A DNA stretch of 64,000 nt, from the NCBI RefSeq assembly GCF_003334305.1, contig NZ_QOWS01000017.1. The stretch is one strand, 5' to 3'. The notes under the pieces were generated by a model. The model worked only from the letters and a program-made list of their open reading frames with translations, had not been told where the DNA came from and made no database searches. Made by a program: the position numbers and the translations under genes. Below, one piece after another: positions 59,221 to 63,204 of this stretch. Numbering within the stretch: the stretch's first letter is position 1; each line of letters opens with the position of its first letter. This DNA comes from Escherichia coli. Its GTDB lineage: Bacteria > Pseudomonadota > Gammaproteobacteria > Enterobacterales > Enterobacteriaceae.

Positions 59221-62200
59221 ATGAATAAAATATATCGGCTAAAGTGGAACAGGTCCCGTAACTGTTGGAGCGTCTGCTCGGAGCTGGGGAGCAGAGTAAA
59301 AGGAAAAAAGTCCCGGGCTGTTTTAATTAGCGCGATAAGTTTATATTCATCTCTGGTATTCGCCGATGATGTCATCGTAAACCAGGATAAAGCTATTGAT
59401 TTTGGCAAAGAGAACCAGAGCATCGATTACCGTATTACGGTGACTGACAATGCCAATCTGGTAATCAATACGACAGATACTTCCCGTCCGCGTCTGACTC
59501 TCGCTTCTGGTGGTGGGTTGGATATTACCGGAGGAAAGGTAACAATCAATGGCCCGCTTAACTTTTTGCTGAAAGGTACGGGGTTCCTGAATGTCTCCAA
59601 TGCTGGCAGCGAGTTATATGCTGATGATTTGTATGAGTCAAACTCAGGCATGAGACATGATCAAGGCTATTTTAATGTCTCCAATGGCGGCAAAATTCAT
59701 GTTAAGGGCACCAGTCGTCTGACTTATACGCAGGGGAATGTAAGCGGCGAAGGTAGTCAGGTAAATGCAGGGACCTTCTTTATGGGCGTTTACGGCGGAT
59801 ATGGCGGTAATCAGTTCCTGTCGGTTAATAACGGTGGTGAAGTTAATGCTCGTGAACATATTAGCCTGGGTTATTACGACCAACGTTCTGATACAACATT
59901 AGTCGTATCAGATGGAGGTAAAATATCCGCACCGAAAATTAGTTTAAGCACCAACTCTGAGTTAGCGTTAGGTGCACAGGAAGGAAGTGCTGCGAAGGCT
60001 GCAGGGATTATTGATGCCGAAAAAATTGAGTTTGTGTGGGCAAAGACATCCGATAAGAAAATCACCTTAAACCACACGGATAAAAACGCGACTATTTCCG
60101 CGGATATTGTCAGTGGCAGCGAGGGCCTGGGCTATATCAATGCGCTCAATGGCACGACTTACTTAACCGGTGATAACTCTGCCTTTAGTGGTAAAGTCAA
60201 AATTGAGCAAAATGGCGCTTTAGGGATCACCAAAAATATAGGTACAGCAGAGATCAACAACCGCGGGAAATTACACCTGAAGGCTGACGATAGCATGACC
60301 TTTGCCAATAAGATTTCCGGCAATGGTACAATAAGTATCGACAGTGGGACAGTGGCACTGACCGGCAATAACTATGCATTCAGCGGATATATTGATGTCG
60401 CTTCTGGTGCTGTCGCGGTTATTTCTGAAGACAAGAACATCGGCCGTGCGGACCTGGATGTTGATGGCAAACTGCAAATCAATGCCAATAAAGATTGGGT
60501 ATTTGATAACGATCTTCAAGGTAGAGGTATTGTTGAAATAAACATGGGGAATCACGAATTCTCCTTCGATGAGTTTGCTTATACAGACTGGTTCCAGGGT
60601 TCACTGGCGTTCCAGAACACGACATTTAACCTGGAAAAGAATGCTGAGTTTCTGCAGAGAGGCGGGATCACTGCGGGTCAGGGAAGCCTGGTAACAGTGG
60701 GTAAGGGCGCTCACTCCATTAGCACTTTGGGATTCTCCGGCGGAACCGTTGATTTTGGTGCCCTGACAGCAGGTGCACAGATGACAGAAGGGACGGTCAA
60801 CGTTAGTAAAACGCTGGATTTGCGCGGCGAGGGTGTGATTCAGGTTTCTGACAGTGACGTTGTAAGCTCAGTATCTCGTGATATTGACTCTGCGTTATCG
60901 CTCACTGAAGTCGATGATGGTAACAGCACCATTAAGTTGGTTGATGCGCAAGGTGCGGAAGTTCTGGGCGATGCGGGCAATCTGCAATTGCAGGATAAAA
61001 ATGGGCAAATCCTCTCCAGCAGTGCCCAACGTGATATTCAGCAGAATGGGCAAAAAGCGGCCGTCGGCACTTACGACTATCGTCTGACGAGTGGGGTAAA
61101 CAATGACGGTCTGTATATCGGTTACGGCCTGACCCAGCTTGATTTACACGCTACCGACAGCGATGCTCTGGTGCTGAGCTCTAACGGTAAAAGCGAGAAT
61201 GCCGCCGATCTCAGCGCAAAGATTACCGGCAGTGGTGACCTGGCATTCAGCAGCCAGAAGGGTCAGACCGTATCGCTTTCTAACAAAGACAACGACTATA
61301 CCGGTGTTACCGATCTGCGCAGTGGGACGCTTTTGTTGAATAACGATAACGTGTTGGGTAATACCCATGAACTGCGTCTGGCGGCAGAGACTGAACTGGA
61401 TATGAATGGTCACAGCCAGACCGTGGGCACGCTCAATGGCAGCGCCGATTCACTGCTGAGCTTAAATGGCGGCAGTCTGACGGTTACCAACGGGGGCACT
61501 TCAACCGGTTCGTTAACGGGGAGCGGAGAGCTGAATATTCAGGGCGGCACGCTGGACATCGCGGGCGATAACAGCAACCTGACAGCGAATGTGAACATTG
61601 CTAATTCGGCTAATGTCCTGGTAAGTCATGCGCAGGGATTGGGTAGCGCAAACGTTGAGAACAACGGTACCCTGGCGTTGAATAATAGCGCTGAAAAAAG
61701 AGCGGCTGCGTCTGTGAATTACACCCTGGGCGGCAATCTGACCAACAACGGTACGCTGATGACCGGAATGTCAGGACAGCAAGCTGGCAATGTGTTAGTG
61801 GTGAAGGGGAACTACCACGGTAATAACGGTCAACTAGTAATGAATACGGTACTGAATGGCGATGACTCAGTAACCGATAAATTGGTTGTCGAGGGCGATA
61901 CTAGCGGCACGACTGCCGTTACGGTGAATAACGCTGGCGGTACAGGTGCGAAAACCCTTAACGGTATCGAACTTATCCATGTAGACGGTAAGTCTGAGGG
62001 CGAATTTGTTCAGGCTGGTCGTATCGTTGCGGGGGCGTATGACTACACTCTCGCGCGTGGACAAGGGGCAAATAGTGGTAACTGGTATCTGACCAGCGGC
62101 AGTGATTCTCCTGAACTGCAGCCGGAGCCAGACCCGATGCCGAATCCGGAGCCAAACCCGAATCCAGAGCCGAACCCTAACCCGACACCTACGCCGGGTC

Positions 62201-63204
62201 CGGATCTGAATGTGGATAATGACCTGCGACCGGAGGCGGGTAGCTACATTGCGAACCTTGCAGCAGCGAATACAATGTTCACCACGCGTCTGCATGAGCG
62301 TCTGGGTAATACGTACTATACCGACATGGTGACGGGTGAGCAGAAACAAACCACTATGTGGATGCGCCATGAAGGTGGTCATAATAAATGGCGTGATGGC
62401 AGCGGCCAGCTGAAAACCCAAAGCAATCGCTATGTTCTGCAACTGGGAGGCGATGTCGCGCAGTGGAGCCAAAACGGCAGCGACAGCTGGCATGTTGGGG
62501 TCATGGCGGGATATGGCAACAGCGACAGCAAAACCATTTCCTCGCGAACCGGTTATCGTGCAAAAGCGAGTGTGAACGGATATAGCACCGGCCTCTATGC
62601 CACCTGGTATGCCGATGACGAGTCGCGTAATGGCGCGTATCTCGACAGTTGGGCGCAGTACAGCTGGTTTGATAACACAGTGAAAGGGGATGACTTACAA
62701 AGTGAATCCTATAAATCAAAAGGATTTACCGCTTCACTGGAAGCTGGATACAAACACAAATTAGCTGAATTTAATGGCAGCCAGGGAACGCGTAATGAAT
62801 GGTATGTTCAGCCGCAAGCACAGGTTACCTGGATGGGAGTCAAAGCCGATAAGCACCGCGAAAGCAACGGAACCCTCGTTCATAGCAACGGTGATGGCAA
62901 TGTTCAAACCCGACTTGGCGTAAAAACCTGGCTGAAGAGCCACCATAAAATGGATGACGGTAAATCCCGCGAGTTCCAGCCGTTTGTAGAAGTGAACTGG
63001 CTGCATAACAGTAAGGATTTCAGCACCAGTATGGATGGCGTGTCCGTCACTCAGGATGGAGCCCGAAATATTGCTGAGATAAAAACCGGGGTGGAAGGAC
63101 AGCTAAATGCCAACCTGAATGTCTGGGGGAATGTGGGCGTTCAGGTTGCCGATAGGGGATATAATGACACCTCTGCAATGGTTGGCATTAAGTGGCAATT
63201 CTGA
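59221..63204 (+). CDS. AIDA-I-type autotransporter adhesin (1327 aa), EhaA-like
   Basis: Extended signal peptide MNKIYRLKWNRSRNCWSVCSELG; long repeat passenger; Pro-rich PEPDPMPNPEPNPNPEPNPNP linker; C-terminal beta-barrel ending ...GIKWQF; GGAG RBS before ATG 59221. Confidence 0.8.
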   Translation: MNKIYRLKWNRSRNCWSVCSELGSRVKGKKSRAVLISAISLYSSLVFADDVIVNQDKAIDFGKENQSIDYRITVTDNANLVINTTDTSRPRLTLASGGGLDITGGKVTINGPLNFLLKGTGFLNVSNAGSELYADDLYESNSGMRHDQGYFNVSNGGKIHVKGTSRLTYTQGNVSGEGSQVNAGTFFMGVYGGYGGNQFLSVNNGGEVNAREHISLGYYDQRSDTTLVVSDGGKISAPKISLSTNSELALGAQEGSAAKAAGIIDAEKIEFVWAKTSDKKITLNHTDKNATISADIVSGSEGLGYINALNGTTYLTGDNSAFSGKVKIEQNGALGITKNIGTAEINNRGKLHLKADDSMTFANKISGNGTISIDSGTVALTGNNYAFSGYIDVASGAVAVISEDKNIGRADLDVDGKLQINANKDWVFDNDLQGRGIVEINMGNHEFSFDEFAYTDWFQGSLAFQNTTFNLEKNAEFLQRGGITAGQGSLVTVGKGAHSISTLGFSGGTVDFGALTAGAQMTEGTVNVSKTLDLRGEGVIQVSDSDVVSSVSRDIDSALSLTEVDDGNSTIKLVDAQGAEVLGDAGNLQLQDKNGQILSSSAQRDIQQNGQKAAVGTYDYRLTSGVNNDGLYIGYGLTQLDLHATDSDALVLSSNGKSENAADLSAKITGSGDLAFSSQKGQTVSLSNKDNDYTGVTDLRSGTLLLNNDNVLGNTHELRLAAETELDMNGHSQTVGTLNGSADSLLSLNGGSLTVTNGGTSTGSLTGSGELNIQGGTLDIAGDNSNLTANVNIANSANVLVSHAQGLGSANVENNGTLALNNSAEKRAAASVNYTLGGNLTNNGTLMTGMSGQQAGNVLVVKGNYHGNNGQLVMNTVLNGDDSVTDKLVVEGDTSGTTAVTVNNAGGTGAKTLNGIELIHVDGKSEGEFVQAGRIVAGAYDYTLARGQGANSGNWYLTSGSDSPELQPEPDPMPNPEPNPNPEPNPNPTPTPGPDLNVDNDLRPEAGSYIANLAAANTMFTTRLHERLGNTYYTDMVTGEQKQTTMWMRHEGGHNKWRDGSGQLKTQSNRYVLQLGGDVAQWSQNGSDSWHVGVMAGYGNSDSKTISSRTGYRAKASVNGYSTGLYATWYADDESRNGAYLDSWAQYSWFDNTVKGDDLQSESYKSKGFTASLEAGYKHKLAEFNGSQGTRNEWYVQPQAQVTWMGVKADKHRESNGTLVHSNGDGNVQTRLGVKTWLKSHHKMDDGKSREFQPFVEVNWLHNSKDFSTSMDGVSVTQDGARNIAEIKTGVEGQLNANLNVWGNVGVQVADRGYNDTSAMVGIKWQF

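Follow-up and report, generated by a model that had tools for sequence, protein, structure and literature searches.

The 64,000-nucleotide stretch of Escherichia coli DNA analyzed here (contig NZ_QOWS01000017.1, the window in the following) carries an intact ehaA gene between betT and pdeL. This is a known gene on a known genomic island, O-island 15 (OI-15), which has already been described and is annotated automatically. The identity of its product as the autotransporter adhesin EhaA, and its place in the type Va mechanism class, can be assigned with a probability of about 95 %. Comparison of the locus between genomes gives a picture of its history that differs from the name island. The ehaA gene looks like part of one of two old haplotypes upstream of pdeL rather than a recent insertion, with K-12-type strains carrying a strongly diverged haplotype that lacks ehaA. 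A probability of roughly 70 % is given to the reading in which the ehaA haplotype has been inherited vertically and is the older of the two, and in which the ehaA-less haplotype of most E. coli would be a diverged replacement.

The distribution of ehaA was determined by megablast of positions 58400-64000 against 5426 complete E. coli genomes, scoring a genome as positive when at least 80 % of the query was matched in one place. The ehaA stretch is present in 1386 of these genomes, about a quarter (~26 %); in the other complete genomes only the betT and pdeL ends were matched. All full-length matches that were examined carry the annotation ehaA, autotransporter adhesin EhaA, and lie between betT and pdeL. 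The ehaA-type junction also occurs in the E. coli W derivative KO11FL, and the gene is therefore not limited to enterohaemorrhagic E. coli (EHEC). Over its full length the window is base-identical to E. coli strain A7, a non-O157 isolate from orangutan faeces. Furthermore, a 5.1-kb contig deposited as "MAG: Collinsella sp." (JAIJJM010000200.1) is 100 % identical to E. coli ehaA and the start of pdeL; it is almost certainly a binning contaminant. The lack of ehaA in K-12 and in about 69-74 % of the complete E. coli genomes, the low GC content of the region upstream of ehaA (30-39 %, compared to 51-59 % in the flanking genes) and the literature description of OI-15 (PMC8565820) are all in line with the usual reading of an O-island, in which ehaA was acquired horizontally and inserted as an island into a K-12-like betT-pdeL spacer. 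This history is nevertheless considered improbable in view of the structure of the junctions, the alleles of pdeL and the arrangement of the locus in other Escherichia species.

Homology to the K-12-type locus ends at position 58688, in the terminator hairpin of betT, and is found again from 63331 onwards, 15 bp ahead of the pdeL start codon. In place of the ehaA segment, K-12 has 820 bp of unrelated sequence including the small gene yahV; the difference is therefore a replacement, not a clean insertion. OI-15 of strain EDL933 was reported to be 4643 bp long with ehaA (z0402) as its sole open reading frame (ORF) (PMC8565820), and the O157 ehaA locus is indeed 1 bp longer than that of the window. 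In the initial annotation the autotransporter gene had been described as inserted, and a check for flanking repeats marking the boundaries of the insertion had been proposed. Searches for direct and inverted repeats gave no more than short matches of a size expected by chance, with none at 58689 or 63330. No integrase, insertion sequence (IS) element or transposase, tRNA gene or att site was found at the junctions. Such borders are not what would be expected of an inserted island, and the same holds for a sequence that has been replaced rather than interrupted. The spacers of K-12 and B2 strains showed no remnants of EhaA with E below 1 in tblastn, and the similarity of the ehaA-pdeL spacer to that of K-12 was limited to the last 15 bp (z=0). 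The K-12 spacer does retain collinear islands of the region upstream of ehaA, which is a further point against insertion of an island into a K-12-like spacer. Indeed, global alignment of the K-12 spacer with this upstream region scored z=4.7 above shuffled sequences.

The divergence does not stop at the pdeL start codon, again unlike the situation expected for an island inserted into the spacer. From nucleotide 1 to ~390 pdeL of the window is 81-86 % identical to that of K-12, after which the identity jumps to 99 %. The encoded PdeL differs from the K-12 protein at 24 amino acid positions, all but one within the first 110 residues, the end that carries the LuxR-type helix-turn-helix (HTH) domain. 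As a consequence of this divergence the name given by the Prokaryotic Genome Annotation Pipeline (PGAP) is reduced to 'EAL domain-containing protein'. Across the complete genomes, the segment 63205-63735 is found at an identity of at least 99 % in 1385, at 95-99 % in 10, at 90-95 % in 3 and at 80-90 % in 3761 genomes. As judged from these identities the 5′ segment of pdeL is sharply two-state, the two alleles sharing about 83 % nucleotide identity at the DNA-binding end without intermediate forms in 5155 genomes, with one allele linked to ehaA, and the 1385 genomes with the ehaA-type junction match in number the 1386 genomes with ehaA. A seeming third pdeL haplotype, an O157:H7 record (H54) with a K-12-type pdeL name, was rejected as a truncation by IS1203. 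In O157:H7 PV15-279 (L028, 5734-6947), IS1203 is located between ehaA and pdeL and the 5′ end of pdeL has been removed.

The first 390 nucleotides of the ehaA-linked pdeL are 92 % identical to those of E. whittamii and 89 % to those of E. albertii, while the K-12/B2 allele is 81-83 % identical to the ehaA-type, E. whittamii and E. albertii alleles alike. On the basis of these identities it is the ehaA-linked allele that agrees with the species tree, with that of K-12 as the outlier, which speaks against an ehaA island inserted into a K-12-like locus. When bacterial species were scanned with one genome each, an intact EhaA orthologue (92 % amino acid identity) was furthermore found in E. whittamii, directly upstream of pdeL-yahB-yahC. 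In E. albertii, four collinear ehaA fragments (covering amino acids 351-399, 1039-1116 and 1214-1327) were found at this same position, directly upstream of pdeL-yahB-yahC. The orthologous arrangement in one species and the remnants in the other also argue against a recent island. The left neighbours of ehaA in E. whittamii are ykgEFG-like genes, and the bet operon, ykgH and the hyx genes do not lie between them and ehaA. It follows that ehaA moves along with pdeL rather than with betT. A 40-mer of the betT terminator hairpin is nonetheless kept in E. whittamii just upstream of the ehaA leader, despite the absence of bet genes.

Taken together, ehaA, the region upstream of it, the spacer and pdeL up to nucleotide ~390 would make up the ehaA haplotype, which E. 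coli would have in common with E. whittamii and E. albertii by descent. The word inserted thus probably gives the wrong direction of change; the comparison suggests that change at the betT-pdeL locus would have run from the ehaA-carrying towards the ehaA-less state. Two points weigh against this history. The claim of an ancestral haplotype is based on two outgroup genomes only; the scan did not recover E. fergusonii, E. marmotae and E. ruysiae, where the gene may be absent or the peptide patterns unmatched. Furthermore, vertical descent could be mimicked by homologous recombination among Escherichia species.

The assignment as ehaA is supported by annotation and sequence identity alike. The RefSeq/PGAP call in an identical genome covers exactly 59221..63204, with the name "autotransporter adhesin EhaA", between betT and pdeL. 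The protein is identical to ECs_0362 of O157:H7 Sakai at 1303 of 1327 positions (98.2 %) and to EhaA of O157:H7 strain F1273 at 1302 of 1327 (98.1 %), both without gaps. The Sakai record, at betT-yahA, labels ECs_0362 "AidA-I family adhesin". The initial annotation had recognized the 1327-amino-acid ORF in the betT-pdeL interval, its resemblance to EhaA and the non-K-12 nature of the strain. All three are confirmed, the last by the lack of ehaA in K-12-type genomes and the identity of the window with strain A7. At the level of EhaA itself, the best matches did not fall in another autotransporter subfamily. None of the NCBIfam models reached its own cut-off with EhaA, and the name EhaA given by PGAP is therefore not derived from these hidden Markov models.

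The six-frame ORF list contains a longer frame on the plus strand, 59155-63204, of 1349 amino acids from the first ATG. Position 59221 is the correct start of ehaA, since the motif MNKIYRLKWN of the ESPR signal opens there and a GGAG Shine-Dalgarno sequence is located 7 nt upstream, with none at 59155. The ATG at 59155 was rejected as start codon for this lack of a Shine-Dalgarno sequence, because both differences with E. whittamii in 59155-59220 are non-synonymous, and because the homologues of Trabulsiella begin at the ESPR motif. These 66 nt directly 5′ of the ehaA start are in frame with ehaA (translation MAFNALLFMQSWFYLDVLLEIV) and are far better kept in E. whittamii than the remaining upstream region. 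They are more likely an element of the 5′ untranslated region than coding sequence, given the two non-synonymous differences and the missing Shine-Dalgarno sequence.

The coordinates of all features are collected in Table 1.

Table 1 Features of the ehaA locus in the window (aa, amino acids)
Feature	Coordinates	Strand	Remarks
betT	56615..58648		flank upstream of ehaA
betT terminator hairpin CCGCGCCAT...ATGGCGCGG	58665..58690	+	left junction 58688/58689
Segment lacking in K-12-type genomes, corresponding to O-island 15	58689..63330	+	4642 bp; blastn vs K-12-type locus L003
Cra-box-like palindrome GCTGAATGGATTCAGC	58817..58832	.	389 bp upstream of ehaA ATG
Best sigma-70-like element TTGATT-16-TATAAT, candidate ehaA promoter	58952..58979	+	10/12 consensus positions
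ehaA coding sequence, intact	59221..63204	+	1327 aa
ESPR extended signal peptide, aa 1-49	59221..59367	+	PF13018 aa 1-38, E=1.4e-9
Passenger beta-helix, aa 50-838	59368..61734	+	AlphaFold2 model, Foldseek; degenerate PATR-type modules
Variable passenger patch, gene nt 301-900	59521..60120	+	88-92% nt identity to Sakai, ~99% elsewhere
Autochaperone AC_1, aa 839-944	61735..62052	+	PF18883, E=1.5e-28
Proline-rich PEPNPNP linker PELQPEPDPMPNPEPNPNPEPNPNPTPTPGP, aa 964-998	62110..62214	+	
Alpha-helical linker and 12-stranded translocator barrel, aa 1001-1327	62221..63201	+	
Stem-loop, 11-12 bp stem, 22 nt past ehaA stop	63227..63258	+	weak U-tract GUGUCAUUUUCUU
pdeL	starts 63346	+	flank downstream of ehaA; continues past window end
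pdeL 5′ part (LuxR-type HTH domain), ehaA-linked haplotype	63346..63735	+	

The region upstream of ehaA contains two conserved islands in otherwise diverged, AT-rich DNA, as revealed by an alignment of six alleles. The first is a Cra-box-like palindrome, which fits the published Cra motif gcTGAAtCGaTTCAgc (PMC5888115) at 15 of 16 positions and is the sole site in the 64-kb window with at most 3 mismatches to this motif. Its core GCTGAATGGATTCAG (58817-58831) is identical in the ehaA-type (window and O157), K-12-type, B2-type and E. whittamii alleles, the five alleles that cover this position; the E. albertii contig stops before it. In the K-12-type locus the only Cra-like site is the homologue of this palindrome, which lies 484 bp upstream of pdeL within the spacer between betT and pdeL. 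As the only candidate site, the palindrome would be the counterpart of the published Cra box of K-12 pdeL. The stop codon of yahV, the K-12-specific filler gene (L003, 3555-3629), overlaps the palindrome. The yahV stretch is partly deleted in ehaA-type alleles, so that yahV is specific to one haplotype. The second island is the block TTGAT-N-CATATAATGCG (58952-58982), which includes the -35 and -10 elements of the candidate ehaA promoter and is invariant in all six alleles, including that of E. albertii, amid diverged, AT-rich surroundings.

The promoter region of K-12 pdeL was reported to combine H-NS sites with a Cra box and two PdeL boxes, and to behave as a bistable switch sensitive to cyclic di-GMP (c-di-GMP) (bioRxiv 10.1101/2021.10.01.462762; PMC5052742). 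The homologues of these K-12 elements that are conserved here sit, in ehaA-type strains, in front of ehaA. The 141-bp spacer between ehaA and pdeL has a predicted fold of -45.8 kcal/mol (z=-3.2) and contains a stem-loop; in E. whittamii and E. albertii its stem is kept and its loop differs. This stem-loop is probably a terminator between the two genes, possibly a leaky or partial one in view of the weak U-tract. No Rfam family was matched in 58500-64000, even at E<=1. It may be speculated, tentatively, that ehaA and pdeL form an old unit of an adhesin and a c-di-GMP phosphodiesterase, and that the Cra/PdeL/H-NS-controlled 'pdeL promoter' of K-12 was ancestrally, and still would be in ~26 % of E. 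coli, the promoter of ehaA. If so, the bistable, metabolism-linked PdeL switch would also set the expression of a surface adhesin, and control of pdeL would differ between EHEC/B1-type strains and K-12. The K-12-type arrangement would then be an ehaA-less haplotype of more divergent origin in which the DNA-binding end of PdeL has been replaced as well.

EhaA displays all elements of a classical, monomeric (type Va) autotransporter: an ESPR signal, a beta-helical passenger, an autochaperone and a 12-stranded barrel. The extended signal peptide of the initial annotation was recovered as PF13018, and cleavage is predicted after VFA49 (...SSLVFA/DDV). The proposed proline-rich linker of the PEPNPNP type is present, and the C-terminal barrel was matched by PF03797 (amino acids 1046-1305, E=7.8e-47) and TIGR01414 (2.5e-124). 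Among protein structures in the PDB, sequence searches identified the AIDA-I translocator 4MEE as the closest solved barrel (4.9e-92, amino acids 1001-1327), and the autochaperone/passenger structures of IcsA (3ML3 and 5KE1) as matches to amino acids 734-966. An alignment of 47 sequences for EhaA was drawn from representatives of 2590 related clusters. The AlphaFold2 model of amino acids 50-960 consists almost entirely of short strands and beta rungs, with a mean pLDDT (predicted local distance difference test score) of 91.6 and a pTM (predicted template modelling score) of 0.80. The top Foldseek matches of the passenger model in the PDB were all autotransporter beta-helices, first the IcsA passenger (5KE1, 2.6e-10), followed by Ag43, the IcsA autochaperone, Hap, TibA, pertactin and EspP. 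Superposition on 3ML3 gave a TM-score of 0.81 and a root-mean-square deviation of 2.8 Å at 41 % identity.

The passenger had initially been described as repetitive, which holds in part. Smith-Waterman scoring of chunks of the passenger against each other and against shuffled sequences revealed degenerate PATR-type modules of ~65 amino acids, for instance residues 309-375 versus 375-440 (score 109, shuffle maximum 59), and weak PF12951 (PATR) matches were found in the passenger. Repeats of the AIDA type were not found, and neither were tandem DNA repeats outside the linker codons. When the passenger was compared with itself by BLASTP, off-diagonal matches were missing because BLAST culls high-scoring segment pairs that lie inside the full self-match. 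The search of representatives showed that residues ~300-825 correspond to a module that is repeated up to 15 times in giant autotransporters, and that the first ~250 residues of the passenger have few relatives.

Between the EhaA proteins of the window and Sakai there are 24 substitutions, of which 23 fall in the passenger (amino acids 58-835), concentrated in gene nucleotides 301-900. The differing codons in this patch are 34 synonymous and 14 non-synonymous ones. This ratio points to a recombined allele rather than to positive selection as the origin of the patch.

The type Va secretion pathway is well established. Following this pathway, the ESPR signal peptide would direct the EhaA precursor through Sec, and the barrel would be inserted into the outer membrane by the beta-barrel assembly machinery (BAM), with the alpha-helical linker in its pore. 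The passenger would then be extruded from its C-terminus to its N-terminus, C-terminus first, the autochaperone folding first and templating the stacking of the long right-handed beta-helix. The beta-helix would be retained on the cell surface. For the allele of the window, these secretion steps and the surface retention are predicted by analogy. According to the passages on EhaA in PMC8565820 (which cite Wells 2008 and Yin 2009), the O157:H7 protein is surface-located, and its overexpression in K-12 results in large aggregates, biofilm formation and attachment to primary bovine epithelial cells from the terminal rectum. The same passages report lower adherence of an ehaA mutant in pig ileal loops. 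Expression of ehaA was found to be ~9.3-fold upregulated in pig loops with attaching-effacing lesions (PMC4474639), and residues 989-1327 of EHEC EhaA function as a stand-alone display module (PMC3781032). Two points caution against transferring this function directly to the window. Its allele differs at 24 residues from the characterized protein, so that binding properties could differ, and the AT-rich upstream region suggests that ehaA may be silenced by H-NS under laboratory conditions.

Many autotransporter genes of E. coli are poorly expressed in the laboratory. This, together with the fragments in E. albertii which illustrate that ehaA can decay, might suggest that ehaA survives in this strain as a relic, silent or in decay, without a present function. 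Such a fate is highly improbable here, as the frame of 1327 codons is intact, full-length ehaA is kept in about 1386 genomes, and the codon changes compared to Sakai are mainly synonymous (62 synonymous, 24 non-synonymous). Induction in vivo and a mutant phenotype have moreover been reported for O157:H7 (PMC8565820; PMC4474639).

As a gene call the finding carries little weight, since EhaA and OI-15 have already been described and EhaA is used in surface-display biotechnology. The added value is modest: there appear to be two old haplotypes, of which the so-called island is one, and they also differ in the promoter region of pdeL and in the end of PdeL that binds DNA. What has been concluded from K-12 on the control of c-di-GMP by PdeL and Cra may consequently not apply to the ehaA-carrying quarter of E. 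coli, O157:H7 and strain W included, and ehaA itself may be tied to the PdeL/Cra circuit.

Several other loci of the window were noted. Upstream of betA (~46700-51700), hyxB and hyxA are found together with hyxR, which encodes a LuxR-type regulator, and with a tyrosine DNA-invertase pseudogene that is interrupted by an internal stop; this is a hyxR/invertase switch locus with the invertase disabled here. The autotransporter gene hyxB is intact in the window and split into two ORFs in Sakai. Positions 22520-36636 harbour the common-pilus operon ecp as well as fdeC, the gene of an inverse autotransporter, and ecp, fdeC, hyxB and ehaA make up four surface-adhesin loci in 64 kb. Positions 1-15744 are occupied by a P4-like satellite prophage with primase-helicase, capsid and baseplate protein genes and a tyrosine integrase gene (13842-15119), which abuts a truncated LysR-family gene beside paoD. 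A PADLOC search gave no defence-system match.

Compared to the control region of K-12 pdeL (yahA), the locus has the Cra-like palindrome and the -35/-10 block in homologous form. In the window, however, these elements are separated from pdeL by a 4-kb gene and a hairpin, the other spacer sequence is unalignable or ~70 % identical, and yahV is not conserved. The closest relative of the gene product is EhaA of O157:H7 (Z0402/ECs0362, also 'AIDA-15', of OI-15), which has the same length, the same betT-pdeL locus and the same domain order. The two proteins are distinguished by the 24 substitutions described above, and the host of the window is a non-O157 strain.

The name AIDA-I-type, used in the initial annotation, fits EhaA in a broad, historical sense only, that of the E. 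coli autotransporters that are neither trimeric nor serine protease autotransporters of the Enterobacteriaceae (SPATE). In this sense it is supported by the AIDA-like barrel and by older annotation, while three tests place EhaA outside the narrow AIDA-I group. The self-associating autotransporters (SAAT) AIDA-I, Ag43 and TibA are often glycosylated and would act mainly by homotypic, head-to-tail contacts between beta-helices. EhaA shares with them the type Va layout, a related translocator and a similar phenotype, since overexpressed EhaA gives aggregation and biofilm (PMC8565820). The barrel of AIDA-I is the closest among solved structures and Ag43 is among the top fold matches of the passenger. 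Membership of EhaA in this group is nevertheless judged quite unlikely. Among the Pfam results for EhaA there was no match to the AIDA repeat family (~19 residues), just the weak PATR matches. No heptosyltransferase gene of the aah/tibC type is located beside ehaA, whose neighbours are betT and pdeL, and the 572-bp spacer upstream of ehaA has no plus-strand ORF of more than 28 amino acids. A phylogenetic classification of 2022 placed EhaA in Group 8 with IcsA, MisL, ShdA, YfaL, UpaE, EhaJ and AatA (PMC9289746), while AIDA-I, Ag43 and TibA form Group 4 in this classification, which is based on the passenger (PMC9289746). In agreement with this, the best passenger match by both sequence and fold is IcsA. 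The whole-protein NCBIfam scores of the ECSE_1600-family model and of MisL are above that of AIDA-I (340 bits versus a cut-off of 1200), all being below their cut-offs.

Among the members of Group 8 (IcsA/VirG, MisL, ShdA, YfaL/EhaC, UpaE, EhaJ and AatA), IcsA is the best match to EhaA in structure as well as in sequence, the latter over amino acids 734-966. The NCBIfam models of MisL, ShdA and YfaL score high over the C-terminal half of EhaA, yet far below the equivalog cut-offs. No host ligand of EhaA is known (PMC9289746). EhaA differs from its Group 8 relatives in the N-terminal ~250 residues of its passenger, which have few counterparts, and from AIDA-I, Ag43 and TibA in its lack of 19-residue AIDA repeats and of an adjacent glycosyltransferase gene and in its passenger group (8 instead of 4).

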